NCBI GenBank assembly: GCA_002401965.1
Contig: NVUR01000001.1
Location: 87,871 to 151,870, forward strand
Direction of reading: 5' to 3'
Length of the DNA: 64,000 nt
Origin: Alphaproteobacteria bacterium
GTDB lineage: Bacteria > Pseudomonadota > Alphaproteobacteria > Micavibrionales > Micavibrionaceae
Position numbers and translations under genes: made by a program. Below, in pieces: positions 1 through 21,127 of this stretch (positions are counted from its first letter, which is position 1; each line of letters begins with the position of its first letter). Under the pieces are notes generated by a model, which searched no databases, was not told the origin of the DNA, and saw only the letters and a list, made by a program, of their open reading frames with translations.

Positions 1-1214
1 GGATTACGATGACCAAAACGTAACACCACCGTTTTATAACGGGAAAAAACCACTGCATCTTCAAAATCAGGAACAACTCCTATCCAAAGGTAATCATCTG
101 TCGTACCACCCATATTGGCCGCACCGCCAGCCTCTGTTGTGCCATCATGAAGTAAAACCGCCGTCGTATCATCACTATGTGGTCGAATGAAATAAGGATA
201 AACATCAATACCATTCGCAATTTTCTCTGCCACGATACACAGACGCACAACATGCATAAACTGGGTTAGCCCCCCTATTTCAGGTAAGTTTGGTTCGGCA
301 AGTAAACTTTGCGATTGTCCCAAAAACTGACTTGTCGTACCAATGGCTGCATCATTAAATTGTAACCACGCATTTGTTGCCATATTTGACCCAAATTTCG
401 CGACAGAAAACACAATAAGCTGCGCCACATTAATGCCCGCATTATTATTTGTTGTGCTAATTGGCGCAAGTAGCGCAAAAAATACAATCAATCTTGGTAC
501 AAACCATGCACGATTAAGACGCTGCCCAAAGGGTGTCCCCGTTGTTACGGTCTCCCCCACAATCGTAATCACAAAATAAATAAGAATAACACCCGAAATC
601 ATGGCGATACCCATAGTATAAAAATGCAACATGCTATGTAACGCTGTGTGCATCGGTAATGGATAGGATGTAGGTGAGGGAATAATATTACCCTGAATAT
701 CCAGACAAGGCGTTCCCAAATCAGAAATACAGGAATTATAAAACCCAACACTGCCCGTACCGCCAGAGCCTTGCATCATACCAAAAACATTATCCAGAAC
801 AATAAAAGCAATATCTTGCGATGATGTATGCCCAGTGGGTGTATTTATAAATAGACTAGACCACGTCCCTGCCAATGCAGGACTGGCAAGCAAAGCCATC
901 CCCAAAAGCGCAAATTGCACCGCAATCAAAGCCAAACCAATTAAAATCATAAAATATAATACAATTTGGTCTGTATGCTTACGCTCAAAAACAAGATTTC
1001 TTCCCGCTTCTGCAATAACATGACGGATACCATAACGGCCAAAATTTTCAGATCTCAAATATGCATGCCCTGCAGGTAATAGCCCTACATTATAATAAAT
1101 GACTGCAATCAAGCTCGCCAAAAAGGAAAAACCCGAGCCAAAAAGACCGCTTATCCGAGGCAAAACCCCGGGCAATATAGTGTATTTTACAAAATCATTT
1201 TTGGTTATCGCCAT
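1..1214 (-). CDS. DotA/TraY-like polytopic membrane protein, paralog 1 (N-terminal ~404 aa only; 3' end runs off the window)
   Basis: Hand translation of the minus strand from the ATG at 1214..1212 gives MAITKNDFVKYTILPGVLPRISGLFGSGFSF.... I checked codon by codon about 22 codons at the 5' end, the TGTPFGQRLNRAWFVPRLIVFF block near 470-540, and positions ~200 down to 1. No stop was seen in these parts; the remainder was read by eye. It is colinear with the two neighbouring paralogs. It is absent from the ORF track because it has no in-window stop. Confidence 0.7.
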   Translation of the reverse strand, partial: MAITKNDFVKYTILPGVLPRISGLFGSGFSFLASLIAVIYYNVGLLPAGHAYLRSENFGRYGIRHVIAEAGRNLVFERKHTDQIVLYFMILIGLALIAVQFALLGMALLASPALAGTWSSLFINTPTGHTSSQDIAFIVLDNVFGMMQGSGGTGSVGFYNSCISDLGTPCLDIQGNIIPSPTSYPLPMHTALHSMLHFYTMGIAMISGVILIYFVITIVGETVTTGTPFGQRLNRAWFVPRLIVFFALLAPISTTNNNAGINVAQLIVFSVAKFGSNMATNAWLQFNDAAIGTTSQFLGQSQSLLAEPNLPEIGGLTQFMHVVRLCIVAEKIANGIDVYPYFIRPHSDDTTAVLLHDGTTEAGGAANMGGTTDDYLWIGVVPDFEDAVVFSRYKTVVLRFGHRN

Positions 1215-1237
1215 ATACTCATATCTTGCTAAAAAAG

Positions 1238-4117
1238 TTAGCTTGTAGCACCCTTAACAACAGCCTGTAAACCGCCACCAACTTTGGAAAGAGCCTGTTG
1301 TGAGCCGACAGTTGTTTTGGATACCAATCCCTGTGCAGGATCTTCACGTTGATCCCCGAATGTTGCAACACTTTGCCCCATCCATCTTAAAATATTATTC
1401 GGTATCGTATCAATTAATTTGAAAGATGACATACCAATTAGATACACAATAATCGCATAAATAACTGTAAAGAAGAATTCATCAACCTTTGACCTTATAT
1501 ATTGCTGTTTCGACGTCGCCGCCGTTGCCGTAAGCTCTACATCCATATCAAAGCCACCAACATTTTCCGTGACGATTGAAAAGATACTATTCAATACGTC
1601 AATTAATGCCGAGAAAATAGAGATACTGGCCAGCAAACCAAATACCGTCAAAATAGGTCTTAAAAACACCTCGAATATCAAGAAATAACCATTAATCGCG
1701 GCATTACCAGGCATACCATGACCATCAATTCTGATATGTGCCAAAGCCCATAACGGCGCGCCGACCATGGCCTCGAATATGCCTTTGATCCAACCACCAA
1801 CCGCAAAGAAGAAATAAATGAACGGTAAGAACGGTACAACATAAAACAAAACGAAACCAACCGTTAAGCCCATCATCGCAATAGAGACAAAGAAACTCGC
1901 CGCAATTCCGCCAACCGCGCCACCAACTTTCATTGCACCCAAGGTCGAAGCCATCGCCGCATACCCTAAGGAACGCACTGCGCTTTCAACCAAGGCACGA
2001 CCCACACCAACCAACATCGCCAAAGGATGCGTGCCAACATTGCTACGTAAATCATATAACCCATCCAAACCCAGCACAGCAGTAATCGCATCTAAAAATG
2101 CGTTACCTGTTAATGCTTCTTTCGTCAAAGAACCTGATGACCATTCAAATTCCGCCGTGTAAAGGGTTGCCGCAAATTCCATTTTCGTCGCACCACCCAA
2201 CAACGTCTCCATACTATTAATACCCGCTGCATTCGGTTCATGTTGTGTTGTACCATCAGGATCCTTGTCATATTTGGTCTTAATCTCCAAAACCTTTTCC
2301 ATGACCGCCGGATATTTGGACACAGTCGGCACCGCATATGCCGCACTAATCAATGAACCATTCATTTCAGCAACCCGATTATACCATATACCGGCACCGG
2401 CCCACCCCCGACGTTGCAAGGTTGCCAAATTTGGATCAGCTGTCGTTACTCTAGCCGATGTACCTTGTGCAGAAACCGCCGCCGCCAAAAACCCACTGAC
2501 CACAAGCTCAACTTGTGCCTTCATATTACTAACATATACGGCATTTAATTCCACAGCATTATTACTCACCGTGGTCGTACCAACATCCTCAGCCAGACCT
2601 TTGGTCATACGAATTGCCACCTCAATTTCACGCTTATTCGCTGTGAGAGTTTCCGCAGGATGCAAAGGACCACCATCAACCAGCGTCATGGACAAACCAT
2701 GCCATATATCTAAAATCATTATATAATAAAGCAACTGCATGAAAGCAGGCCCAGGTTCAGCATTAGCCAAATCCCGCGCATCTTGCATTGTTAATGTGAC
2801 TTCCCCACATGTGGGGTAAACAAAAGAATGACTTGCCGGATATAATGCCTCATTTTTAATCCCAAAACGAATAGTGACAGAATTCGCATCATCAGCCAAT
2901 GCAGTCACCAGATTATTGTAACCCGTAGACGGTGCTATTAACAAAGAATTGACAGTCTCTGAATGCTGAAACAAGGCATACGCTTCGACAACTTGCACTG
3001 GCACAACAGGCTGTGGAGGACCGCCGAGAGCAACCGCCGCCGCCGCCGCTGCTGTTTCTTGCTCAAACCGTTGTCTTTCATAGTAATCATTCACATATCT
3101 ACAAACCTTGGCGACATATAAAAATTGCAGCACAGGCGAAACATCTGGAAGATTAGGCGTAGACACCATATTCGCTCCACCGCCCAAACTCTGCGTTAAT
3201 GTGGAGTTGAACAAACTCCAACCATTTGATGCAAAAGCCGAGCCAATCTTCGCCGCATATAAAACAACATATTGCGAAGAATTTAATCCCGATCCCAACG
3301 GCATCAGCAATCCAAAGGCAATGACAATTCGCAAAGGCGCCCATGTTTTATTAAAACGTTTGCCAAATGGCGTACCAGTCTGCGCGGTCTCTGCCAAAAT
3401 GGTTACAATGAAATAGCTGGTAATAATAACGGCAATAACCAAAAGGCCGGTACTATATATACTAAATAAACGATGTATCCCAAGATGATAGGGAAAAGGG
3501 AAATATGTATAGGCAGTAGGCGTCAATGGGCCGAATTGCCCCGCAATTGTGGCCGAAACCCCTGTGCCTGTCGTATCTGTAATCGCAATATTTGTACCAA
3601 AATTATCGGTACAATTAACCGCAGAACCAATACAAGATTCAAAGAATCCCATCGTTGAAAGACTAGGGTGGGGAACACCAAACACCATATCCAACATCAT
3701 AAAGGCCAAATCATGCGGTCTATTAGCAATAGGAACAGTAAAGAACCCAACCCATGATGTCGGTATCGCCATTGCCGGCTGTAAAAACAATACCATCGCC
3801 AAAGACAAAAGCTGAACCGAGAATATAACCAGCCCCACTAAAACAGCCATAAACATAAAGATTTGATCTATATTTTTAAGACGAAACGTTACATTACGCG
3901 CCGCCTCACAAACAACATGTCGAATACCATACAAACCAATATTACGTTGATCTAAATATGGATGAGAGCGCGGCAACAAACCAACCATTTGATAAACAAC
4001 AGCAATAAAGAAGGGAATATAATGGAAACCGCTCATGAACAAATCACGCATTCTCGGCACGATTTGCGGCATAACGCTGTAACTAAATAATCCTTTTGGC
4101 ATTAATAAACCAAACAT
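1238..4117 (-). CDS. DotA/TraY-like polytopic membrane protein, paralog 2 (959 aa)
   Basis: Long ORF with N-terminal TM helices, a block TGTPFGKRFNKTWAPLRIVIAFGLLMP, a large central non-hydrophobic domain, and a C-terminal TM bundle with GAPLWALAHIRIDGHGMPG...FLRPILTVFGL. The family call rests on remembered DotA/TraY motifs. Confidence 0.75.
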   Translation of the reverse strand: MFGLLMPKGLFSYSVMPQIVPRMRDLFMSGFHYIPFFIAVVYQMVGLLPRSHPYLDQRNIGLYGIRHVVCEAARNVTFRLKNIDQIFMFMAVLVGLVIFSVQLLSLAMVLFLQPAMAIPTSWVGFFTVPIANRPHDLAFMMLDMVFGVPHPSLSTMGFFESCIGSAVNCTDNFGTNIAITDTTGTGVSATIAGQFGPLTPTAYTYFPFPYHLGIHRLFSIYSTGLLVIAVIITSYFIVTILAETAQTGTPFGKRFNKTWAPLRIVIAFGLLMPLGSGLNSSQYVVLYAAKIGSAFASNGWSLFNSTLTQSLGGGANMVSTPNLPDVSPVLQFLYVAKVCRYVNDYYERQRFEQETAAAAAAVALGGPPQPVVPVQVVEAYALFQHSETVNSLLIAPSTGYNNLVTALADDANSVTIRFGIKNEALYPASHSFVYPTCGEVTLTMQDARDLANAEPGPAFMQLLYYIMILDIWHGLSMTLVDGGPLHPAETLTANKREIEVAIRMTKGLAEDVGTTTVSNNAVELNAVYVSNMKAQVELVVSGFLAAAVSAQGTSARVTTADPNLATLQRRGWAGAGIWYNRVAEMNGSLISAAYAVPTVSKYPAVMEKVLEIKTKYDKDPDGTTQHEPNAAGINSMETLLGGATKMEFAATLYTAEFEWSSGSLTKEALTGNAFLDAITAVLGLDGLYDLRSNVGTHPLAMLVGVGRALVESAVRSLGYAAMASTLGAMKVGGAVGGIAASFFVSIAMMGLTVGFVLFYVVPFLPFIYFFFAVGGWIKGIFEAMVGAPLWALAHIRIDGHGMPGNAAINGYFLIFEVFLRPILTVFGLLASISIFSALIDVLNSIFSIVTENVGGFDMDVELTATAATSKQQYIRSKVDEFFFTVIYAIIVYLIGMSSFKLIDTIPNNILRWMGQSVATFGDQREDPAQGLVSKTTVGSQQALSKVGGGLQAVVKGATS

Positions 4118-4169
4118 TCTTGCTCTCTTTCCTACTCTAGAAAATCTTTATTTTATTCCCAATATTCAC

Positions 4170-7100
4170 TCACGGTGTTGTTACTGGCGTTGACGGCGTT
4201 GACGCACCACCTGGGCTTGTATTACCACTGGAAGGTTTTGCGCCTGTCGTCGCCCCAGCTACCTGACCACCAACACTCTTACCAAGACCACCGCCTAATT
4301 TCACAACCGCACCTGCGGCCTGATTACCCATTGTCATACCACCCATTGCGGCATAACGACTAAGGCTGTCCACTTGATCTTGATTAATATCACCAAACGA
4401 AGACACACCCGCACCTGCCCAGCGTAATATATTATCCGGAATTCTATCTATCAACTTAAACGATGCCAAAGCCATCATATAACAAACAATCGTATAGATA
4501 ATAGTGAAGAAAAACTGGTCAATTATACCACGTTGGAAACGCGCATCATTCACAGAAGTCATATTCAAGATATCTCCAGTCACACTTGATGCATCCCCCG
4601 CAACATTAGAGACCACAAGATCCCAAATCAAATTCAAAATTTGTACCTGTGTTGAAAAAATAACAACCGCCGCAACCAAACCTATGACCGTCAAAATAGG
4701 CCTTATAAATATTTCTAAAATCAAAAAATATCCGTTTTGCGCCGAATCACCAGGTAAACCATCACCATCAATACGTAAATGCGCCAAAGCCCATAGCGGT
4801 ACACCGACCATCGCCTCAAAAATCGCCTTGATCCACGACGCCGCCGCAAAATAAAAATACACAAACGGCAAGAACGGTAAAACATAGAATAAGACAAAAC
4901 CAGCCGTCAGCCCCATAAACGCCGTTGACAATAAAACCTGACTAGCCGCCTCTGAAAGTGCGGCGATTTTACTATTCTTCTCCATAACACCCGCCATACC
5001 GCCAAGAAATGCACTACCGGTCGCGCCCGCCAAATTCCGAACCGCAGAATCAACAAGCCCCTTTCCAACCATGATAAGTTGCACCATAGGATTCAAATGA
5101 GCGTTCGACGTACGCATCGCCGCCAAGCCGGACGTCCCGAATAACCGATTCAAAACATCCATAAAAACATTCTGATAATTAATTCGGCCTTTATCATCGA
5201 AACTCTTGGCATCATTATTCCAATACTCAAACACACCTGATAACCCTAACGCAACCTTATATGGCTGAGTCATAGATTTATAACCCTCTGGCGTATCTTT
5301 ACCGGATTGCGCCTTCGTAGACATCGTAAACTGCCTTTTATATTCGACATTTTCATTACTTTTTCGATTTTGCTTACGCACTTCTTCCATTGCAAGGGGA
5401 TACAAATCCATATAGGGAACCGCCTGCACACCATCAATCCAGCCACCATTCGTTTCGGCAAGTTTGCTATAAAAAATACCGGCACCAACCCAACCATAAC
5501 TTCGATCCACAGCGGTATGCTCCTCGGCTGTAGAATTCAAGACATGATCCCCCCATGCGGTTCTTATCGCATCCAAAAGATCATCTGTATATTCACTAAT
5601 TTTCTCCTGTTTCCATGCCGCCTCTGGTGTTGCCCGCACTTCACATTCTGCTACAGTTGCAACGAATCCTGGGAAAATACTTCCCACACCAGCCAAAGGC
5701 CCCAGCCCCAACCCTGTTGCTTCGTTGCCCGTACAAAATGCCGTTTTCTCGGTTGACGCGCTCACAACTGCATCAACAATCAAAGACCGTGCAAACTGGC
5801 GCATTTCAATATCATCAAACCACATTTTTGCGACCATATCATAATATGTCTTCAACATATAATCCGCACCACCTCTAGAAAAAGAGGCCCCTCCGATATC
5901 AGCCAAAGAGGCAATCGGTATACGGATTTCTCCACATAGAGGTTTCACCAAACCAGGATTGCCAGTATGCTGACCGCTTGTCGCAGATGGCGTTATATAC
6001 TCCCCGAACCGAATAATGATATCACCACCATAATAAAAACCCAGCGCCTCCAAATAATCCGGCGTGGCACCATATGTCAACAGCAGGCGCTCTGTCGGAT
6101 CTCCTTGAAAAAGTATATTACCAGCAATCGCACCAGCAGGGTTAGATGTTTTTTGCTTTACCAAGAATGGTACAATTCTGAACGCAGTCTCCGTCGTGGG
6201 ACCATGATATCCCGCATCAACACCAAAATAATTTCCACCGGAAGGATTATCCATATTAGCACTCACGCGCAAATAAGAATATGCACAAGCATGTACAAGC
6301 GTCATCGCCTCAACAAGAGCTGTAAGATCCGGTGCCTCCGGAATGGCAAGTAAAGAATAGCGTTGTCCCATTGGCCGAGTATCTGATGTAGAAAATTGAG
6401 AATGCCCCACAACAGCATCATTAAACCCATTCCACCCCACCGTTGCGAAACTTGATCCATATTTTGCAGCATACAGCACGATATACTGACCAGAGTTCAG
6501 TGTCGCACCAACCCCCGCAACAGGCGCAGGCATTAACAACCCCAATGCAACAACCAATCGTATAGGCACCCAAACATTTTGAAAACGTTGCCCAAACGGC
6601 GTGCCGCTCACTGCAGTTTCAAAAACAATAACCACAATAAAATAAAGGAAAATCAGAACAGCAATCATAAGAAGGGCTGTCGAATAGAATCTAAACAACT
6701 GATGCAACGCGGCCTGAAAAGGTAACGGCATGATAGAAACCCCCGTTGCCGGCCCAACATTAGTAAACGGCACCCCTGCACTAAAATTCGTACAATTGGC
6801 AATCGTTGTTGTAGAACAGAAAACACCCGGGACACCAAAGACACGATCCAATAGGTTATAGGCAATATCCGACGCTGGATCAGGCGTATCAAACCACGAA
6901 AATGCCATGGCAGGCGAAACCACCAACGCATAAATCAAAATAAGAAACTGCGCCGCCAACATCACAACACCTGTCAACATCCCAAAATAAACGAAGATCT
7001 GATCGATATTTTTTCTTGAAAAAGTAAGATTGCGCGAAGCCTCTGTAATTACGTGACGTACACCAAAACGTCCGATGTTCTTCGAGGACAAGTACGGATG

Positions 7101-7250
7101 ATGCGCGGGTAACAAACGAACCATAAAATAGATATGCGCCATCCAAAACGAAACATAAGAAAAACCGGAAGAAAATAATTCCTGCACACGCGGTACGATA
7201 CGCGGCATAGACGCATAAATCAGGACATCTTTAGTTTTAATATTTCGCAC
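4170..7250 (-). CDS. DotA/TraY-like polytopic membrane protein, paralog 3 (1026 aa, GTG start)
   Basis: Same architecture as paralog 2: SGTPFGQRFQNVWVPIRLVVALGLLMP and GVPLWALAHLRIDGDGLPG...FIRPILTVIGL. It has a Gly/Ser/Thr/Pro-rich C-terminal tail. The GTG at 7250..7248 gives an N-terminal length matching the other two paralogs; an alternative ATG is at 7208. Confidence 0.75.
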   Translation of the reverse strand: MRNIKTKDVLIYASMPRIVPRVQELFSSGFSYVSFWMAHIYFMVRLLPAHHPYLSSKNIGRFGVRHVITEASRNLTFSRKNIDQIFVYFGMLTGVVMLAAQFLILIYALVVSPAMAFSWFDTPDPASDIAYNLLDRVFGVPGVFCSTTTIANCTNFSAGVPFTNVGPATGVSIMPLPFQAALHQLFRFYSTALLMIAVLIFLYFIVVIVFETAVSGTPFGQRFQNVWVPIRLVVALGLLMPAPVAGVGATLNSGQYIVLYAAKYGSSFATVGWNGFNDAVVGHSQFSTSDTRPMGQRYSLLAIPEAPDLTALVEAMTLVHACAYSYLRVSANMDNPSGGNYFGVDAGYHGPTTETAFRIVPFLVKQKTSNPAGAIAGNILFQGDPTERLLLTYGATPDYLEALGFYYGGDIIIRFGEYITPSATSGQHTGNPGLVKPLCGEIRIPIASLADIGGASFSRGGADYMLKTYYDMVAKMWFDDIEMRQFARSLIVDAVVSASTEKTAFCTGNEATGLGLGPLAGVGSIFPGFVATVAECEVRATPEAAWKQEKISEYTDDLLDAIRTAWGDHVLNSTAEEHTAVDRSYGWVGAGIFYSKLAETNGGWIDGVQAVPYMDLYPLAMEEVRKQNRKSNENVEYKRQFTMSTKAQSGKDTPEGYKSMTQPYKVALGLSGVFEYWNNDAKSFDDKGRINYQNVFMDVLNRLFGTSGLAAMRTSNAHLNPMVQLIMVGKGLVDSAVRNLAGATGSAFLGGMAGVMEKNSKIAALSEAASQVLLSTAFMGLTAGFVLFYVLPFLPFVYFYFAAASWIKAIFEAMVGVPLWALAHLRIDGDGLPGDSAQNGYFLILEIFIRPILTVIGLVAAVVIFSTQVQILNLIWDLVVSNVAGDASSVTGDILNMTSVNDARFQRGIIDQFFFTIIYTIVCYMMALASFKLIDRIPDNILRWAGAGVSSFGDINQDQVDSLSRYAAMGGMTMGNQAAGAVVKLGGGLGKSVGGQVAGATTGAKPSSGNTSPGGASTPSTPVTTP

Positions 7251-7440
7251 GTTATTTACTCACCATTTCGTCTAATTATCATCCGCAAATAATGCGAACT
7301 TTAGATAAATCACGACTAATAGTAACATCATTCAGATATAGAAAGCGAGTTTTATGTCATGTTTTGGACATTTTTTATATCGCCCCTATATCAAAAAAGC
7401 CAGAAACCGAAGCGCACAGCCAAAAACAGACACGTACACC

Positions 7441-9126
7441 CTATCCAGTTTTGCGTAACGGTCTGTATTTTATACGCCGTGGTGTATCAGCATCATGCCC
7501 CATACGTTTACGATAATCGGCCTCATAATCCTGATAATTGCCTTCAAACCATGTGATTTGTGAATCACCTTCGAAAGCCAGAATATGCGTTGCCAAACGG
7601 TCAAGGAACCAACGATCATGCGAAATCACCACAGCGCAACCTGCAAAGCGTTCCAACGCCTCCTCAAGAGCCGCCAAAGTTTCCGTATCCAAATCATTGG
7701 TCGGCTCATCCAACAGGATAACATTTGCCTCTATTTTCAACATCTTAGCAAGATGTACACGGTTACGTTGCCCCCCTGATAAGTCACCGACCTTTTTCTG
7801 TTGATCCGACCCACGGAAGTTAAAAGCAGACACGTACGCCCTGCTTTGCATCTCTATTTTGCCCAGCTTGATAATATCCGTACCACCTGAAATTTCTTCC
7901 CAGACATTATTGTCCGCATTCAGCGCATCACGACTTTGATCCACATAGCCCAGTTTAACCGTATCACCAACCTTGAACGTGCCCTCATCAGGCGCTTCCG
8001 CGCCTGTAATCATCTTAAACAGCGTTGATTTACCCGCGCCATTGGGACCAATAACACCTACAATACCACCCGGCGGCAAAGAAAAGGACAAATCATCCAT
8101 CAACAAACGATCACCAAAGCCCTTACGGATATTTTTCGCCTCAATAACCAGATCACCCAAACGCGGCGGCGTTGGAATAACAATTTGTGCATTCCGCATA
8201 TCGGTCTTTTGGCTCTCGGCCAACAATTCTTCATACGCATTAATACGCGATTTTGACTTGGAACGACGGGCAGACGGGCTTTTCCCCATCCACTCCATTT
8301 CACGCGCCAATGTTTTCTGACGGGTATTCTCTTCACGATCCTCTTGCTTCATACGCTTGGCCTTCGCCTCAAGATACGCAGTATAATTGCCTTCATAAGG
8401 AATACCCGATCCACGGTCTACCTCTAAAATCCAGCTTGTCACATTATCAAGAAAGTAACGATCATGCGTTACCATCACCACAGCGCCTGTATAATCCAAC
8501 AAGAACCGTTGCAACCACGCCACACTTTCAGCGTCCAAATGGTTTGTCGGCTCATCAAGCAACAAAAGGTCAGGCTTTTCCAGTAACAGCTTACAAAGCG
8601 CAACACGGCGCGCCTCGCCACCAGATAGATTTTCTACAGAAGACTCAGCGGGCGGGCATCTCAACGCCTCCATCGCAATTTCAATCGTGCGATCAAGCTC
8701 CCATCCATCGACAGTATCAATTTTTTCCTGTAACTCGCCCATTTCCGTGCCCAGTGCATCAAAATCGGCGTCAGGCTCACCCATTTCCATGCCAATCGCG
8801 TTAAAGCGATCAACCATCGCCTTCACATCAGCCAAGGCCTCCATCACGTTCTCGCCAACTGTTTTACTCTGATCCAACTGCGGTTCTTGTTCCAGATAGC
8901 CAACGCGCGCGCCTTTTGCCGACCACGCCTCGCCCATGAATTCCTGATCGACACCGGCCATAATTTTCAGCAATGTCGACTTACCCGCACCGTTTGGCCC
9001 CAAAACACCAATCTTCGCACCAGGCAAAAAGCTAAGCGTTACATCTTCGAGAACCTTCTTGCCGTTGCCGTACGCCTTACTCAGACCGTTCATCACATAA
9101 ATATATTCATACGCCACCATAATCAC
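7441..9126 (-). CDS. ettA: Energy-dependent translational throttle protein EttA (ABC-F ATPase)
   Basis: Two ABC cassettes (GPNGAGKST twice, LSGG signatures) and a typical EttA N-terminus [12 protein letters not shown]; 561 aa. Confidence 0.95.
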
Positions 9127-9250
9127 TTATTCCCTAACCTATCGAAGATTTACAAGCATCCTTTGTGTCCGATCCTGCGCGTGAAGTCAATCAAAGATAA
9201 GGATTTCACCGTTTCCTGTTTTCATCTCGTAATCTCAATATTCCAATGCT

Positions 9251-9874
9251 ATGATCCGTCCAAACATAATGGGAAATTTTATAATGCTGGACAAAAGTTT
9301 AATCATCGGAGAAGACAAAAAACAAAGATGCTGGTGGTGTGGAGCAGACGAGGAATACGTACGCTATCACGATACGGAATGGGGGCACCCTGTTCATGAT
9401 GATACCCGCCTGTTTGAAAAAATCTGTCTGGAGGGGTTTCAAGCAGGGTTAAGCTGGATCACGATTTTACGAAAACGCGAGAATTTCCGCGCCGCATTTG
9501 ATGATTTCGACTTTAACAAAGTCGCGAAATACGACAATGATGCCATAAATTCACTGCTCCAAAATGCAGGTATTATCCGCCATCGTGGCAAGATAGAAGC
9601 CACAATAAACAACGCTCAACGCGCTATAGAGCTAATAGAAGAAAAGGGAAGTTTAAGCAATTATTTCTGGAGCTTTGAACCACAGAACAAGCCCACACCA
9701 AGACTGGAAACAGACATCCCAAGCAAAACCGAGGACTCTATTATCCTATCAAAAGATTTGAAAAAACGGGGTTGGAAATTTGTCGGACCGACAACCTGTT
9801 ACGCCTTTATGCAAGCCATGGGCATGGTCAATGACCATATCGAAGGATGCACAGCCCAGAAAAAGCCCTATTAA
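9251..9874 (+). CDS. tag: DNA-3-methyladenine glycosylase I
   Basis: RCWWCGADEEYVRYHDTEWGHPVHDD...LEGFQAGLSWITILRKRENFR is the Tag signature. The true start may be the internal ATG at 9284. Confidence 0.9.
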   Translation: MIRPNIMGNFIMLDKSLIIGEDKKQRCWWCGADEEYVRYHDTEWGHPVHDDTRLFEKICLEGFQAGLSWITILRKRENFRAAFDDFDFNKVAKYDNDAINSLLQNAGIIRHRGKIEATINNAQRAIELIEEKGSLSNYFWSFEPQNKPTPRLETDIPSKTEDSIILSKDLKKRGWKFVGPTTCYAFMQAMGMVNDHIEGCTAQKKPY

Positions 9875-12800
9875 CTAACGCCCGCCACCCATTGCATTTT
9901 GGTTAGATTCAAACGTAAGATCATCCATAGGCACAGCGTCAGGATCATAAGGCCGTCCATCATTTATATCATATATATTATTTTTTATATCCGCATCACT
10001 GTCATTTTCTTGCTGATCAGGTTTATCCCTGAAAAACTTACCAATCAGAGGAATACGGCTCATAACGCTGCCACTCTTATTATTAAACTCCGACTGTCTG
10101 TCAGACTGGGAATTATCACGCGGCCCCATATTTTCATAACGTGAACTCTCATTATAACGCAAACCAACACCATTTGCATATGCCTGCTGATTCACCTGCG
10201 TTGTCATGTCACGTCCATAAACAGCCTTAAGACCATTGGTAATACCTATGCTATCTTGCCCATTTGGAACAATGCCCGACATCTGGACATACCCACCTTC
10301 TGCGCCTTGAATAATACGTCCGCCAGGCACACGTTCAATCACACGCAACAAATCATCCAGACGTCTACTACCTTGTGCAGGTGCGGTATTCTCCGCCATA
10401 TCGACTGCACCACCCGCTCTTTGTTCTGATAATGGCTTAATAAAATCCGTTTCATAATCAACAAAGCGATATTCAACACCACTGCCACTACGCATCGCGA
10501 CAACTGCGTCAAAATCATTGTGACGTATACCAAATGCCTCCAGCTCCAAGAATACAAAGCGTGACCGTCCATCCTGTAACCCAATAGCATCAGCAAAAAA
10601 AGTATCTAACGGATGCTGGCTATTACGCGTGGCACGTTCCATAAGATCTGGTCTGTCATTCGCCAAATCAAGTTCATCAAGAAGAAAGTTCGCCTTATCC
10701 TCATCCAAAAGACGTAAATCTCTGAAAGATTCCGGTGTCGGGTGAACTTCCGCTCTGGTATTAAAGACCTGCGTTACTGGTTCAGACTGCTCCACACTGG
10801 CTTGTGGGCGTGGCTCTAAACAAAGAACCCGATCAATTACATTTTCAACACCCTCTTGCGTTGGATTTCTCCAATTATAATTATCAAGCAATGCTTTTAG
10901 GTGATCTGGGTTATCCAACGATCTGGTATTCAGGTAATCTTCTAACTCCAACACCTTAAACGTATCATTGGATGGATCATTATCCATCGGCCCATCACTC
11001 TTCACACGGATAAGTGCGAATACTGAATCGCTGCCCTCTTCTTTGTAAAAGACAGGTACATCGCACGGAATACGATCTTTATTATGCGCCATATATTGAT
11101 CACGCAGCGGATCACTCTCTATTACCGGCTCAACCTTTGCAGCCACCACAGCAACAGCAGGGGCAACCACTATCGGCTGCGGAACCCATTGGGCAAGATT
11201 GGGCGTCAATTGCCCCCAAAGCAAAGCCTGATCGAGAACAGTAATATTTTGCGTTGAGCCATCCGCCGTAGACACAAAATCCTGATCCAATTCCAACATT
11301 TTTGCCGAGAACATATCAATATCATCTTGCGGCACGCCCTTATCATGCATGTACGTTAAAATCACATCCATATTTTCAGATGAAAGTGGCGTTTTCGCAA
11401 TATCAGCTAAATTCTCTTCGGTAATTTCAGTTCCCGCCTCTACCAACTCATGTATATTGGCGCGAATCCAAACCTCTTCCAAAATACCGCATGTTTCTTT
11501 ATTCAAAGTATCAGTGAAGGTGTCTGTACCACTATCATCATGCATAAGCGCAGGATTCACCGCAGATATACCCAGCAAATCCGCATTATTATAAAGAACA
11601 TTTTGAATTTCTGCCACACGACCACGTGAATAACGCTCTGGATCTTGTTCAAAATCTTCTGTGCTACGTTCAAATTCTATTTCTACACGTTGTTCACCTG
11701 CCGCAATAACCTCTGCATCAACCGCAGGCAACGTCGCTTTATAAGCCGGCGCAGATGCCACCACCGCCGCCAGTTCTGGACGCTGTGTAATAACATTATC
11801 CAACGTATTTCCGACATCTGCCACACGTTCCTGAATATCAATATTCAGGCCATTGCCGTTTTTATATTCTTCGCCAATATCAGCCAATCTATCAACAAAA
11901 GCGGCTCTTGCATCTGCAAGATTACCCGCGCTCGCCGCATGATCCATCGCATTTTCTAACGCCGCCTTGATTTGACCAGCATCCGCACTGCCCAGCACAA
12001 GCTTCATCGCAGTACTGGGAACAAAACCATCCATTTTATCCATAAAGTCTGCTTTTGAGCGCGCCATAATTTTGGCAAAATCAGCATCAGGGTCAAGACC
12101 TTCAGCCTTCGCTATTTTATTAAAGGAATCTTCAAATTTATCACCAACAACATCAACCGCATTTTCCAATGCCGCCTTATCATCCTTATCGCCCCAAATA
12201 CGATTAATATTAATCCCAAACATGGAAAGTATACCACCCACCATTTTACCAAAATCACTATTGGTGAAGAAATCTTTCAACGCATCCTTAAAACCAGGTG
12301 CAAAATTATCCATGGCAGACGCAAGACCATCCAATATCATATTCATCTTGGTTGTTGATTTTGCCTTTTCATCATTCAACAAATCATTTTCTTTCAACAC
12401 ATCTAAACTGTGAAAAAGAACATTTAATTTATCCGTTTCTGCCTGCAAAGCATCATATTCTGCTTTTTGTTGATTATATGCTGTCAAAGCTGTTGCATGG
12501 GCGGTTTGCTGCGCGGCATCCGCATTCGCGGCCAATGGCTGAATTTCTGTTGGTGGCGGTGCCATCAATGCCTTCGCCTGTGCAGGTGTCACCTTTTCAA
12601 TTTCCAACTGCTCGCGCAGCATAGAAAAATCATCTTTGGTTAAAACCGCAAATTTCAGCTGTCGACCAATTGTTTCGGTATATAATCCATTTGGGTTTTT
12701 CTCACCATTCAGCGTCTTAAGCAACATAATGGCCTTCGCCGCCATATCCTGAGAATTCTCACCAAACACACCATCCGTCAAATCGTCTTCCGTCAATGGC

Positions 12801-13954
12801 GTCACAACCGAGCTTGTAAGGTTTTTCCCGATACCACCAAGTTTACCAGTTATGTCATCAAGCTGATCGCCCAATGTAAATAAAGCCGCCTCAACCGTAA
12901 AAATCGCACCATTTATCTCAGCTTGCTTCAACGCATCGGCGCGATCTTGTTCCTGTGTCTCTGTTCTTTCAACAACAGGAGCAGAAGCAACAACAGTAGA
13001 AGCCGCGTTAACAACAGCAGGATTTCCACCCACAACTTTCGGGGATTCTGCAACAAGAGTGGATGCGACATCATTCACTGGAACATCTACAGGAACCTCC
13101 ACAGAAATTTCTTTCATGGCGACAACACTCAATGCATTTTTGTCACGCAAAAATTGAATATCATCAAATAATTGCGGCACAGCAGCAAGACTATCTTCCA
13201 ACTCCGCAACATCACCAGCTGTAAATTTTGGATCACTTTTCGCAGCGACAATATCACTTGATAATTTCAGTGAAATTGCACTCTGCAACATAAAATCATT
13301 AAGCATACTCTTAGAAAATACAGTCGCTTCAGCGGCCTCATCCTTCAAATAATCCATTGTCTTTTCATAGGACGCGAATGATTGTGCATCAAAAACACCA
13401 TCCACAGTGCCAGGAGCAGACAAATTCGCGTTGGGATCATCCGCATTTACAGTCGCAACAATATTAACCAATGCCTTTTCAATACGCATAACACGCATCT
13501 GCACATCCGCAGGAATTGCATCAACAGGAACCATCTTCGTCACGGTCTGCGTTTGTGCAGGGGACGCCGCCTGTTTCATCTGTGCATCAACCTGATTCAG
13601 AATGGATATATTCCCCCCCGCATCATTGATTAAGCCCAGCACCGTTTCCGCATTTACATTTCCATCCGAATTATCCGCCAACATTTGCGCCAGAACATCT
13701 TTATCGGTAATGGGTCGCAAGGGAATTGCAGGTTGCACGATAGAGCCATCGGCAATGCCCGCTGTCAATGTTCGTTGTGCCGCTTCCAACGCTGTATCAA
13801 GATGTGATTTCAGCTGCGCGCCAGCCTCTGGCGTATAAACAAAATCAGGCTGTATCACGCCACCCAAAGCAACAGAGAGACCAGCGAATTCGCTCTTGAC
13901 CTCATTCAAATCGTCTTGTGTTAATTCTAATGTTTTGGAAACGGTATCTACCAT
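9875..13954 (-). CDS. Giant acidic hypothetical protein (1359 aa), with no signal peptide or TM segment seen
   Basis: Uninterrupted 4.08-kb ORF. I recognise no domain. It is D/E-rich throughout, and its stop codon directly abuts the tag stop. Confidence 0.8.
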   Translation of the reverse strand: MVDTVSKTLELTQDDLNEVKSEFAGLSVALGGVIQPDFVYTPEAGAQLKSHLDTALEAAQRTLTAGIADGSIVQPAIPLRPITDKDVLAQMLADNSDGNVNAETVLGLINDAGGNISILNQVDAQMKQAASPAQTQTVTKMVPVDAIPADVQMRVMRIEKALVNIVATVNADDPNANLSAPGTVDGVFDAQSFASYEKTMDYLKDEAAEATVFSKSMLNDFMLQSAISLKLSSDIVAAKSDPKFTAGDVAELEDSLAAVPQLFDDIQFLRDKNALSVVAMKEISVEVPVDVPVNDVASTLVAESPKVVGGNPAVVNAASTVVASAPVVERTETQEQDRADALKQAEINGAIFTVEAALFTLGDQLDDITGKLGGIGKNLTSSVVTPLTEDDLTDGVFGENSQDMAAKAIMLLKTLNGEKNPNGLYTETIGRQLKFAVLTKDDFSMLREQLEIEKVTPAQAKALMAPPPTEIQPLAANADAAQQTAHATALTAYNQQKAEYDALQAETDKLNVLFHSLDVLKENDLLNDEKAKSTTKMNMILDGLASAMDNFAPGFKDALKDFFTNSDFGKMVGGILSMFGININRIWGDKDDKAALENAVDVVGDKFEDSFNKIAKAEGLDPDADFAKIMARSKADFMDKMDGFVPSTAMKLVLGSADAGQIKAALENAMDHAASAGNLADARAAFVDRLADIGEEYKNGNGLNIDIQERVADVGNTLDNVITQRPELAAVVASAPAYKATLPAVDAEVIAAGEQRVEIEFERSTEDFEQDPERYSRGRVAEIQNVLYNNADLLGISAVNPALMHDDSGTDTFTDTLNKETCGILEEVWIRANIHELVEAGTEITEENLADIAKTPLSSENMDVILTYMHDKGVPQDDIDMFSAKMLELDQDFVSTADGSTQNITVLDQALLWGQLTPNLAQWVPQPIVVAPAVAVVAAKVEPVIESDPLRDQYMAHNKDRIPCDVPVFYKEEGSDSVFALIRVKSDGPMDNDPSNDTFKVLELEDYLNTRSLDNPDHLKALLDNYNWRNPTQEGVENVIDRVLCLEPRPQASVEQSEPVTQVFNTRAEVHPTPESFRDLRLLDEDKANFLLDELDLANDRPDLMERATRNSQHPLDTFFADAIGLQDGRSRFVFLELEAFGIRHNDFDAVVAMRSGSGVEYRFVDYETDFIKPLSEQRAGGAVDMAENTAPAQGSRRLDDLLRVIERVPGGRIIQGAEGGYVQMSGIVPNGQDSIGITNGLKAVYGRDMTTQVNQQAYANGVGLRYNESSRYENMGPRDNSQSDRQSEFNNKSGSVMSRIPLIGKFFRDKPDQQENDSDADIKNNIYDINDGRPYDPDAVPMDDLTFESNQNAMGGGR

Positions 13955-18098: not shown

Positions 18099-20771
18099 TT
18101 ATCTATTCCACCAACCCTTTTTCTTCTTTTTTGGTGCTTGATTAACCGTTTCATGCTGGCTTGCAACAGATGGCTCCTCATCCTTTTTCGACAAAGGTGC
18201 TTTTTTCTCTGCTTTAGCAACAGGTGCGACTTTCTTCTCCGCTACCGCTGGAGCAGGCGCATCTTCCTTTTTCTTGGCTGGCGCACGTCGCTTACGCACT
18301 GGCTTTTTCGGCGCGTCATCCTGCGCGCTATCATCGTTCGCAGGAGAATCCTTCTCAGGCGCTTCCGCTTTATCATCAGACTTCGAAGGTTTTACACCTT
18401 CATCACCAGACGCGGCAACATCAGCAGAATTATCAACCTTCTTACGACGACCACCGCGACGCTTTGGCTTATCTTCTTTATCGCCCTCCGCTTTGTCAGC
18501 AGGTTTTTCATCCGAAGGTTTGGCACTATCCTGTGCTTTGTCCTGCACATTTTCATCTTGTGCGCTATCCTCTTGTTGATCCGCTTCATTACGAGTATTA
18601 CGATTACGGCCACCACGGCGACCACGACGACGACGGTTACCTTCGGCTTTATCATCAACACCGTCCGAAGTAACAACCTTCGTCTCGCCATCATCAGGCT
18701 TATCATCACCCTCCGCAGGTTTTGAAACCTCTACACGATAATCGGACGCCGCGATTTCATCATCGACACGCAACAAAATTTCCATATTATAACGCTCTTC
18801 TATTTGCGCCAACTTCTTACGTTTGAAGTTAAGAGTATAAAGCGCAACACTGCTCGACACTTGCACAATAACCTGCGCCGCGCGACCGCGTATGCCTTCT
18901 TCCTCAATCGCACGTAAGACGAGAATAGACATCGCATCATCTGTACGTACCAAGCCGATACCACTACAATTATGACATTGCTCGAACTGTGCTTCGATTA
19001 AACTAGGGCTTAATCTTTGGCGCGACAATTCCATCAAACCAAAAGAAGAAATGCGACCAACTTGAACACGCGCACGATCCGAAGACAAAGCTTCCTTCAT
19101 ACGGCGTTCAACCTTCGCATTATTACCGCGATGTTCCATATCGATAAAGTCGATCACAACCAAGCCACCCAAATCGCGCAACTTCAATTGACGCGCAACT
19201 TCTTCTGCTGCCTCTAAATTTGTTTTTAACGCCGTTTCTTCAATATGACGGCCCTTTGTCGACTTACCGGAGTTCACATCAACAGACACAAGTGCTTCCG
19301 TCGGGTTAATCACAAGATAACCACCGGATTTCAAACGAACCTCAGGCTGGCCAATCTCGTTAATCTGACTTTCAATTTGAAAACGATTAAACAAAGGCAA
19401 TTGCCCGCTCTTATAATGCTTAACCTTCTTAACATGCGAAGGAATCAACATGTTCATAAAATCTTTTGCTGTCTCGTATCCTGCCTCGCCGGCAACCTGA
19501 ACTTCATCAATATCACTCGTATAGAGATCGCGGACAGATCGTTTAATCAGATCAGCTTCCTCATACACAATCGCAGGCGCAGTTGATTCCAAAGTAAGCT
19601 CACGGATATTATTCCACAAACGCATCAAGTAATCCAAATCGCGCTTAATTTCATCCTTTGTACGTGTCACACCAGCGGTACGAACAATAACCGACATGCC
19701 CTTCGGCACATCAAGGCTTTTAACAATGTCCTTCATGCGCGCACGGTCTTTTTGATTTGCGATCTTGCGGCTAACACCACCCGCACGTGGGCTGTTTGGC
19801 ATCAAGACACAATAACGACCCGGCAAAGAAAGATACGAACCGACAGCCGCACCTTTATTCCCGCGCTCTTCTTTATTCACCTGAACCAGCATAATCTGAC
19901 CGCGTTTTACAACTTCTTGAATTTTGTACTTACGGCGCAAGTTAAAGCGGAAACGTTGAGAATCATCACTTTCCTCACCACCGACAACTTCAACATTGCG
20001 GTTGCGATATTGTGAGCGCTTATTCCCACGACCACGACCACCGCGTCCACGACCACGACCACCGCGATTATTATTTTTCTTGTTATTCTCGTCCTTATCT
20101 GCATTTTCCGCAGCATCAGCCGCGGCACTATCCTCCGCGTCCTCATCAACAGCAGGCAAAGCAACATTCCCATCCGCATCACCAGCAGTCTCAGGATCCA
20201 CATCTGCATCACTTGGCACAGCATCCTTAACATCCGATTCTTTCTTCGTATCCGCTTTTTCTGCCTTGGCATCAACCTTCTCAGCATCATCTTTTTTCGC
20301 TTTAGCAGGTTTTCTACCTTTTTTCTTCGGCTCAGCTTCTTTTTCAGCATCCACATCCGCACTAGTTTCATCACCAGAATCCTCAGACGTATTATCGTCC
20401 TCAGCGTCCGCACTTTCTACGTCTGCATCATCATTATCCGGGCTCTCGTCTTCAAGTGCTTCTTCTTCATCATGTTCTTGAAGCAAAGCCTCTTGCTCGG
20501 CCATTAAGGCATCGCGATCAGCAACCGGAATTTTAAAGTAATCAGGATGTATTTCTGAAAACGGTAAGAAACCATGACGATTTCCACCAAAACTAACGAA
20601 CGCCGCCTGTAAAGACGGTTCAACCCGTGTCACCTTCGCCAAAAAGATACTCCCCTTTAAAGGTTTGCGGCTTTGGCTCTCGTAATCATATTCTATAAGT
20701 TTATTTCCATCGGTAATCGCAACACGCGTTTCTTCTTTGTGTGTTGCATCGATAAGCATTTTCTTTGACAT
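18099..20771 (-). CDS. rne: Ribonuclease E
   Basis: MSKKMLIDATHKEETRVA start, S1 domain and catalytic core (VVIDFIDM, CHNCSGIG zinc link), with long acidic and Arg-rich inserts. The start was moved to the ATG at 20771, whereas the ORF track begins at 20807. Confidence 0.9.
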   Translation of the reverse strand: MSKKMLIDATHKEETRVAITDGNKLIEYDYESQSRKPLKGSIFLAKVTRVEPSLQAAFVSFGGNRHGFLPFSEIHPDYFKIPVADRDALMAEQEALLQEHDEEEALEDESPDNDDADVESADAEDDNTSEDSGDETSADVDAEKEAEPKKKGRKPAKAKKDDAEKVDAKAEKADTKKESDVKDAVPSDADVDPETAGDADGNVALPAVDEDAEDSAAADAAENADKDENNKKNNNRGGRGRGRGGRGRGNKRSQYRNRNVEVVGGEESDDSQRFRFNLRRKYKIQEVVKRGQIMLVQVNKEERGNKGAAVGSYLSLPGRYCVLMPNSPRAGGVSRKIANQKDRARMKDIVKSLDVPKGMSVIVRTAGVTRTKDEIKRDLDYLMRLWNNIRELTLESTAPAIVYEEADLIKRSVRDLYTSDIDEVQVAGEAGYETAKDFMNMLIPSHVKKVKHYKSGQLPLFNRFQIESQINEIGQPEVRLKSGGYLVINPTEALVSVDVNSGKSTKGRHIEETALKTNLEAAEEVARQLKLRDLGGLVVIDFIDMEHRGNNAKVERRMKEALSSDRARVQVGRISSFGLMELSRQRLSPSLIEAQFEQCHNCSGIGLVRTDDAMSILVLRAIEEEGIRGRAAQVIVQVSSSVALYTLNFKRKKLAQIEERYNMEILLRVDDEIAASDYRVEVSKPAEGDDKPDDGETKVVTSDGVDDKAEGNRRRRGRRGGRNRNTRNEADQQEDSAQDENVQDKAQDSAKPSDEKPADKAEGDKEDKPKRRGGRRKKVDNSADVAASGDEGVKPSKSDDKAEAPEKDSPANDDSAQDDAPKKPVRKRRAPAKKKEDAPAPAVAEKKVAPVAKAEKKAPLSKKDEEPSVASQHETVNQAPKKKKKGWWNR

Positions 20772-21127
20772 TGTATTCTCCATTCTCGCATACGGCAGCC
20801 TGCCCAATCATGTCAAAACAGACATAAAAGGAGCGGCGCAATTGCGCATAAATTAACTATTTAATGCTTGCAGCTCGACGGAACTTTTTAAACTTTACAA
20901 ACTAAACGTAAAGCCGCAGGCATATAAAACCTCTGACACTCTACACAGTTGTAATGAAATGCTCAATGCTAAAACGAGATTCTTATAAGAAAAGTTATAT
21001 GCTTAATCTTTACCAAGGGTGAAAACGTCCCAAAAACACATACACTCTATAAATACACAACGAATTGTATATTTATGAAATATTTCCGTAAATTGAATGA
21101 TACAGAGATAAGAAAACAACACGTATA
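20772..21127 (-). promoter_or_regulatory. Long (356 nt) promoter plus 5' leader region of rne
   Basis: The non-coding gap upstream of rne is unusually long. RNase E genes are known to carry long autoregulatory leaders. No specific structure was verified here. Confidence 0.3.

Follow-up and report, generated by a model that had tools for sequence, protein, structure and literature searches.

Three tandem DotA/TraY-family genes in Micavibrionales, probable channel subunits of a dispersed type IVB secretion system

A stretch of 64,000 nucleotides (nt) from a member of the Micavibrionaceae (Alphaproteobacteria; contig NVUR01000001.1 of assembly GCA_002401965.1, positions 87,871 to 151,870), referred to below as the window, opens with three consecutive genes encoding large, polytopic and mutually paralogous membrane proteins of the DotA/TraY family. 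The same array recurs across the Micavibrio-like genomes that were compared, with no other gene of a type IVB secretion system detected beside it. The isolation of the trio is, however, most likely local and not genome-wide, and published surveys, together with the gene table of Micavibrio aeruginosavorus, make it probable that the three proteins belong to a chromosomal type IVB system whose genes are dispersed.

The three genes and their family assignment

The genes were named C, B and A by rising coordinate, and all of them lie on the minus strand, the order of transcription being A, B, C. Paralog A, the first in the putative operon (4170..7250), encodes 1026 amino acids (aa) from a GTG start; paralog B (1238..4117), a polytopic membrane protein of the DotA/TraY family, has 959 aa and begins with ATG; and paralog C, the third (1..1214), runs off the left edge of the window, which holds its N-terminal 404 codons only. 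The spacers measure 23 nt between C and B and 52 nt between B and A. These open reading frames (ORFs) were recovered as they had been given in the original prediction, a reading of the DNA letters that had called the products paralogous and DotA/TraY-like and had quoted several motifs common to them, all of which were found in the translations. The paralogy was equally evident by BLASTP, which aligned A with B in two segments (E 6e-95 and 3e-78) and the C fragment, that is, the N-terminal part of the protein, with B at E 7e-71. Identity between A and B is 40% overall and 53% in the C-terminal hydrophobic core, where a block that had been judged by eye to be about 70% identical (B residues 754-828) was measured at 76%; in the central domain, which had been described as strongly diverged, it is 24%. 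The full-length third copy (997 aa) of a relative (L005; such handles denote the loci of relatives that were compared) shares 84% identity with the C fragment, and B is 100% identical to the NCBI protein COB14_00440 of an Alphaproteobacteria metagenome-assembled genome (MAG). Both the alphaproteobacterial genes of the window and a gene order in common with M. aeruginosavorus ARL-13 are in accord with this source.

The three genes presumably form one operon. The 190 nt between the stop codon of the neighbouring gene ettA and the start of A (7251..7440, minus strand) would hold its promoter and leader, a role assigned by position only, because a promoter and terminator scan of window positions 1-9400 gave consensus counts equal to the shuffled expectation and was, therefore, uninformative. 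In most relatives the gap between ettA and the array is about 150-230 nt.

Two NCBIfam profiles bear on the family assignment: TIGR04346 (DotA_TraY), with a cut-off of 100 bits, and NF033886, the equivalog of Legionella-type DotA, with a cut-off of 500 bits. Both complete proteins passed the first, as the original prediction had suggested checking, with 271.9 bits for B and 243.9 bits for A, and the C fragment scored 45.2 bits (E 5e-12), in keeping with a sequence that stops after the first 404 residues. With NF033886, B and A reached 158 and 161.8 bits, below the cut-off. On these scores, A and B are members of the DotA/TraY family, without being orthologs of DotA in the equivalog sense. The second profile that had been suggested, PF04610 (TrbL/VirB6), was not matched, and Pfam gave these window proteins no match at E <= 1 except a spurious one to Pup. 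In the databases, proteins of the trio type already carry the name "DotA/TraY family". A defence-system or phage reading was rejected because PADLOC and PHROGs scans of the three paralogs and of a 1359-aa neighbour gave no matches.

Structural comparison led to the same family. Among PDB sequences, the sole match of B was Legionella DotA (9NGY/9NH0; E 1.8e-15), in three aligned blocks (B 216-305 with DotA 59-148, B 751-849 with DotA 743-840 and B 879-944 with DotA 909-981). An AlphaFold2 model of B, made from 112 sequences (predicted local distance difference test, pLDDT, 84.8; predicted template-modelling score, pTM, 0.77), was then searched against the PDB with Foldseek, and the sole significant match was again DotA (9ngy_FP1, E 1.6e-10, probability 1.00), over an alignment of 904 columns with 15% identity and modest template-modelling (TM) scores of 0.38/0.42. 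The match to TrwI/VirB6 of R388 (7o3v) was not significant (E 6.7-9.6). The DotA/TraY call thus stands on profile, PDB sequence and predicted fold alike.

DotA of Legionella was described as having two membrane helices, a large extended domain and long hydrophobic helices, HH1-5 (Yue et al. 2025; PMC12501162); the extended domain is disulfide-rich and the interior of the DotA chamber is hydrophobic (PMC12501162). A DotA-like layout is predicted for B by its model and hydropathy, with two N-terminal membrane helices (TM1/TM2), a large extended central domain and long hydrophobic helices towards the C-terminus. The central domain, of roughly 400 residues, is presumably periplasmic and holds invariant cysteines, and two of the hydrophobic helices in the model, of 63 and 49 residues, contain 2 and 4 charged residues, respectively. 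Over 232 copies of the array genes, 96 positions are at least 95% identical, C339 and C437 are conserved to at least 95%, and C162 and C169 are invariant in the 112 sequences, mostly of paralog B. A conserved N-terminal module of about 215 residues, new in comparison with DotA/TraY, precedes the match to the DotA/TraY profile. It consists of a head that is presumably cytoplasmic, a single long membrane helix and a loop that carries cysteines.

The likeness to L. pneumophila DotA (9NGY/9NH0) therefore extends to the TIGR04346 family and to the overall fold, with its two membrane helices, cysteine-bearing central domain and long C-terminal hydrophobic helices. However, identity in the structural alignment is about 15%, the scores of 158-162 bits compare with an equivalog cut-off of 500, and there are three paralogs here and one gene in Legionella. 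Moreover, the trio lies outside any dot/icm cluster, it has no adjacent IcmX-like gene, and the signal peptide of DotA is replaced by the conserved module of about 215 residues. TraY of the IncI1 plasmids (MPF_I type) belongs to the same family, resembles the trio in the pattern of its terminal membrane helices and matched the array by tblastn with E values down to 7.5e-21 (2.8e-18 in the window). It differs from the trio in being shorter (719 aa) and single-copy, in its position between traX and excA in the tra operon of a plasmid with a relaxase, and in sequence, the identity being 23-29%.

Conservation, age and surroundings of the array

A scan of genome contigs, with one genome per GTDB species, yielded 235 matching stretches, and the best 80 species representatives were analysed. 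All of these 80 are Micavibrio-like, under the labels Micavibrio sp., Alphaproteobacteria, Rhodospirillales or Pseudobdellovibrionaceae/Bdellovibrionales, the last two being taxa to which NCBI taxonomy still assigns Micavibrio. A survey of relatives for conservation of the triplet had been recommended, and it showed that the triplet is retained: exactly three full-length copies are present in 66 loci and four in 3, and the 12 loci with fewer than three are each cut by a contig end. The copies are co-oriented in 80 of 80 loci, with a median spacer of 29 nt, and 88% of the spacers are of 60 nt or less. In the loci with four tandem DotA-like copies (L066, L067 and L077), the extra copies group with the position-3 clade of the distance tree described below. 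Some MAGs labelled "Zetaproteobacteria bacterium", "Alcanivorax sp.", "Bdellovibrionales" or "Pseudobdellovibrionaceae" also carry the Micavibrionales trio, for example L001 (GCA_002747015.1), L024 (JBQDYD010000001.1), L039 and L078, and L001, L024 and L078, which are not cut by a contig end, have the alphaproteobacterial ettA/mla/lpt synteny too. Since NCBI taxonomy still files Micavibrio under Bdellovibrionota, these labels were considered taxonomic or binning artefacts.

The age of the duplications was examined in a simple neighbour-joining (NJ) distance tree of 232 array copies and four plasmid DotA/TraY sequences, a phylogeny of the kind that had been proposed. All 232 copies formed one clade with respect to the four plasmid proteins and, within it, the position-1 copies, including A, were separated from the sister clades of positions 2 and 3. 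Because the position groups are separate across most of the species, both duplications are, as far as a tree of sequence distances can tell, older than most of the sampled radiation, in agreement with the old duplication that had been proposed.

This degree of conservation bears on the idea that the trio consists of functionless, decaying remnants of an ancient conjugative element. Such an origin would be in line with the lack of a relaxase or transfer gene nearby and with the low similarity to plasmid TraY. However, the three frames are intact in at least 66 species, the 96 positions mentioned above have been kept in 232 copies, the composition is native (the G+C content of the window is even, at 40-49%), neither an integrase nor a tRNA is found in the window, where tRNA and Rfam RNA searches gave nothing, and the presumed orthologs in M. 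aeruginosavorus ARL-13 are transcribed, as described below. The remnant explanation is, therefore, contradicted by the conservation and extremely improbable.

The absence of other dot/icm/tra genes, of a relaxase and of an integrase from the 64 kb, already noted in the original prediction, was confirmed. Family scans of every non-overlapping ORF of at least 150 aa, combined with searches with IncI1 proteins, revealed no dot/icm/tra gene beside the trio and no relaxase, mobilisation or integrase gene in the window. When all six frames of the window were searched with 20 type IVB proteins of IncI1, TraY alone matched, and tblastn with the 19 others gave no match in about 1.7 Mb of flanks from the 80 loci. 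Other type IVB genes were thus found neither within 10 kb of the array in the 80 species nor within 57 kb on one side in the window, and the trio does not have beside it the genes that make up a type IVB cluster with dotA/traY (traU/dotO, traJ/dotB, traI/dotC, traH/dotD, traN/dotH, traO/dotG, traW/icmX and trbC/dotL). The best match of TraW (IcmX), at a non-significant E of 0.005, was a small ORF just downstream of pepA in L060, at a place where relatives have holC. As for a conjugative MPF_I system, with which a relaxase is associated, none is present in the window, and the published calls for these bacteria are of the relaxase-less type (pT4SSi).

These results also decide on the proposal that the trio forms the right-hand end of a more extensive, atypical type IVB cluster reaching to the left of the window. 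Paralog C is cut by the window, so its own left flank lies outside, which leaves room for such a cluster. However, in the orthologous loci of the 80 species the array stops at the third copy, or at the fourth in three of them, and housekeeping genes follow: in 66 of the 80 species, and in the closest relatives among them (L005 and L006 at 77% identity, L001 at 76%), mlaC, mlaA, lptG, lptF and pepA come straight after the third copy. Together with the tblastn result for the 19 other IncI1 proteins, and because no other type IVB gene is present in the window or within 10 kb in the relatives, the proposal is refuted, with hardly any probability left to it.

Among the best 80 loci, ettA is located upstream of the array in 61 and mlaC downstream in 66, the usual downstream order being mlaC(-)-mlaA-lptG-lptF-pepA on the strand opposite to the array. 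At least seven lineages have a different context, which is still a housekeeping one (PBP1a, MltA, EF-P/EarP, HemY, Mic60, RTX protein). In two loci of a divergent lineage with such a different context (L076:5321-6532 and L083:12932-14167), the gene that comes right after the array, in the same orientation, encodes an MltA-type lytic transglycosylase; cell-wall hydrolases frequently accompany envelope-spanning machines. In one species, a 712-aa RTX (calcium-binding repeat) protein is encoded directly downstream (L033:15830-17968, minus strand), and RTX/hemolysin-type proteins are candidate predation factors highlighted for M. aeruginosavorus.

Micavibrio aeruginosavorus and the link to a type IVB system

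The genome paper of M. aeruginosavorus ARL-13 lists, in this order, pepA (GMV_191), two genes of LptF/G size, vacJ/mlaA, ttg2/mlaC, GMV_196-198, a gene for an M50 peptidase and an ABC-F gene as long as ettA (Wang 2011). GMV_196-198 are annotated as three "putative membrane proteins" of 2694, 2763 and 2742 nt (Wang 2011) and, because the synteny is the same, they were taken as the orthologs of C, B and A, which on gene order and length they almost certainly are. In a search seeded with a "Micavibrio sp." ortholog (L051), the M. aeruginosavorus protein was not among the best 120 matches, so the link to ARL-13 stays at the level of synteny and gene length. The RNA-seq indices of GMV_196-198 in the free-swimming attack phase and in the attachment phase are 11.9/3.9, 4.8/1.7 and 3.6/2.8, and those of the flanking housekeeping genes are 0-0.7 in the attack phase (Wang 2011). 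By a hand count of roughly 190 listed genes, an index of 11.9 falls in about the top tenth of the attack-phase values.

Transcription in ARL-13 is also relevant to a possible role of the trio in housekeeping envelope biogenesis, for example in the movement of lipids or lipopolysaccharide. The presence of mlaC-mlaA-lptG-lptF directly downstream in 66 of 80 loci, the hydrophobic interior of the DotA chamber and the order-wide, core-gene-like conservation of the trio would all suit such a role. However, the mla/lpt genes are on the opposite strand and convergent with the array, hence not co-transcribed with it; at least seven lineages place the trio in the other housekeeping contexts mentioned above (PBP1a, MltA, EF-P, HemY, Mic60); the profile scans matched no known lipid-transport family; and the presumed ARL-13 orthologs are transcribed in the attack phase, in which lptFG read 0 and mlaA 0.7 (Wang 2011). 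A function of this kind is, in consequence, very unlikely. The related idea of lipid transfer, taken from a preprint ("Type IV Secretion System Drives Lipid Mixing"), was discarded, because the lipid mixing reported there needs DotG and not DotA, which gives the trio no support.

The evidence for a larger machine came from the literature. TXSScan counted one pT4SSi in ARL-13 and one in strain EPB, according to Table S3 of Abby 2016, which gives counts only. Similarly, in a MacSyFinder survey of 18,671 marine genomes, the summary statements of Needham 2022 attribute pT4SSi to seven Micavibrionales and define it by VirB4/IcmB plus more than six components, without a relaxase. In addition, the gene table of ARL-13 (Wang 2011, Additional file 4) contains an "icmO" (GMV_383; 2583 nt, 860 aa, expression 4.3/3.5) that lies in the core genome, with argS on one side and a tetR gene on the other, and outside all nine genomic islands. 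The pT4SSi calls and this "icmO" are the reason why the isolation of the trio is most likely confined to its own locus, and on this literature the trio is probably part of a chromosomal type IVB system with dispersed genes. The orphan "icmO" is never mentioned in the text of Wang 2011. In the table (GMV_382-385) it is flanked by hypothetical genes of 768, 582 and 1215 nt, the two latter having about the size of Legionella DotN and DotM, a speculative resemblance.

Alternatively, much as the original prediction had envisaged with its stand-alone DotA-derived membrane system, the trio might be a stand-alone DotA-derived channel, without a type IVB core and with at most an orphan IcmO-like ATPase, serving as a novel sort of envelope conduit specific to Micavibrionales. 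The lack of type IVB genes within 10 kb in 80 species and in the 64-kb window is what would be anticipated in that case, as are the additional N-terminal module of about 215 residues and the scores below the DotA equivalog cut-off; the trio appears near-universal (235 stretches) in comparison with the seven marine Micavibrionales to which pT4SSi was attributed in the statements cited, and Wang 2011 saw no type IV system in ARL-13. Against this, TXSScan called pT4SSi in both complete M. aeruginosavorus genomes, a call that under the definition quoted from Needham 2022 needs VirB4/IcmB and more than six components, and the gene table of ARL-13 does include "icmO" (GMV_383). Furthermore, the assembly of Legionella DotA depends on DotG and the core complex (PMC12501162), and the incompleteness of MAGs, together with the co-localisation rule of MacSyFinder, would lead to under-detection of a scattered system. 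With pT4SSi reported in these two genomes and in seven marine relatives, as far as the counts and summaries tell, a stand-alone channel is unlikely and probably the wrong explanation.

A model can be proposed on the basis of the Legionella machine, in which DotA, the counterpart of VirB6, and IcmX form a closed pentameric protochannel spanning the inner membrane and the periplasm on the axis of the Dot/Icm system (PMC12501162, PMC12857230). On contact, the DotA-IcmX protochannel rearranges to give a trans-envelope conduit (PMC12501162, PMC12857230), and DotA is now regarded as the gate to this conduit, opening when the host is touched. In the model favoured here, one operon would supply three non-redundant DotA-type subunits, and these would build the channel across inner membrane and periplasm for a Dot/Icm-like system without a relaxase (pT4SSi), whose remaining genes would lie elsewhere on the chromosome. 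The shared hydrophobic cores would provide packing surfaces for co-assembly into mixed, stacked or alternative rings, the divergent central domains would give each subunit a distinct periplasmic face, and the N-terminal module of about 215 residues might allow docking on the cytoplasmic side, perhaps of the coupling ATPase. The three paralogs most likely co-assemble, as a mixed channel or as stacked rings, and are not redundant, since the position groups have all been retained together with tight spacing. The machine would be deployed on contact with prey in these epibiotic predators, a role made plausible by their lifestyle and by the attack-phase transcription of the presumed ARL-13 orthologs.

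The closest precedent for the dispersed system postulated here, by analogy and not by membership, is the rvh system of Rickettsiales, with its tandem VirB6 arrays. Its genes are scattered in islets, with 3-5 tandem copies of rvhB6 carrying large insertions and with no VirB5 (PMC10732058). Both cases would be alphaproteobacterial, chromosomal and relaxase-less, with scattered genes and an enlarged, tandemly repeated subunit of the VirB6 class (PMC10732058), the scatter of the partner genes of the trio being known from the literature only, and DotA is regarded as the type IVB counterpart of VirB6 (PMC12857230). However, rvh is a type IVA system with VirB6 proteins of the Pfam family TrbL/VirB6, whereas the trio is of the DotA type, with no match to PF04610 and the Foldseek E values of 6.7-9.6 to TrwI/VirB6. 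The hosts differ as well, since those of rvh are intracellular parasites of eukaryotes and the Micavibrio-like ones are predators of bacteria.

Several points weigh against the favoured model. The scores of B and A with the DotA equivalog, 158 and 162 bits, are far from its cut-off of 500 bits, and the identity to plasmid TraY/DotA is 23-29%. The NJ tree, built simply from distances, carries no support values, and a few divergent lineages and the four-copy arrays sort uncleanly in it. The equivalence of GMV_196-198 to the trio was drawn from synteny and gene length, not from sequence, and the link to pT4SSi from two supplementary or summary statements on MacSyFinder results and one automatic gene name, all of them in the literature. 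In that literature, the genome paper of ARL-13 itself reported "no evidence" of any type III or IV system (Wang 2011). Moreover, pT4SSi was called in seven marine Micavibrionales only and the trio is apparently near-universal, so that some lineages, possibly including that of the window, may keep the trio without a full machine. Finally, both the hetero-oligomer and the role in predation are things that we infer.

Other genes of the window and significance of the trio

To the right of the array, the neighbours ettA (TIGR03719, 946 bits) and tag (TIGR00624, 241.5 bits) are housekeeping genes, as had been predicted, and so are the remaining sizeable ORFs of the window, which encode a glycosyltransferase, aminotransferases, RNase E, an M23 peptidase, IalB, the cytochrome c oxidase operon, NAD-glutamate dehydrogenase (NAD-GDH), DsbD, a PAS histidine kinase, BacA, PurD and PutA. 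Adjoining tag is an ORF of 1359 aa (9875-13954, minus strand), for which Pfam, NCBIfam, PADLOC and PHROGs gave no match; L001 and L004 have large ORFs (1387 and 1704 aa) at the corresponding place beside tag, and the Micavibrio sp. locus L003 is without one. The catalytic region of RNase E (18099-20807, minus strand) spans residues 26-632 in comparison with a profile of 415 positions, which indicates an insertion of about 200 residues between the S1 and RNase E/G domains. The cytochrome c oxidase gene cluster also contains, between coxI and the gene for heme O synthase, an ORF of 812 aa (29002-31440, minus strand) whose product has three lectin domains of the concanavalin/LamG type. GC skew is negative (-0.07 to -0.29) in all 2-kb bins of the window and the minus strand carries the majority of the genes, which is consistent with a single replichore and no origin or terminus inside.

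The triplication itself appears to be undescribed. The literature search found no paper that deals with the trio, with its conservation throughout the order, with the fixed locus where it stands apart or with the extra module, although pT4SSi in Micavibrionales had already been reported in two surveys and the family name was already present in the databases. In the sole type IVB machine in which it has been resolved, DotA is a single-copy homopentamer (PMC12501162). If the reading favoured here is true, an order-wide, co-retained DotA trio would be the first example among type IVB systems of a channel subunit present as several paralogs, as well as a natural test of the effect of subunit heterogeneity on the DotA gate, and it would parallel the unexplained VirB6 arrays of Rickettsiales. 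In practical terms, systems of this sort can be overlooked or split by cluster-based detectors and in genome papers; the paper on ARL-13 reported no type IV system. M. aeruginosavorus is cultured, and the presumed orthologs GMV_196-198 are, therefore, directly testable. According to PMC11055950, it is still not known in what way epibiotic predators feed across the envelope of their prey. As a tentative possibility, a mixed, non-homopentameric DotA channel of a type IVB machine aimed at bacterial prey, and not at eukaryotic hosts, could be the long-sought conduit by which Micavibrio-type epibiotic predators inject into the cells to which they attach or feed on them, the divergent central domains and the N-terminal module being adaptations to this use. 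The trio would, in any such machine, mark a Dot/Icm-like system in obligate predators of bacteria.

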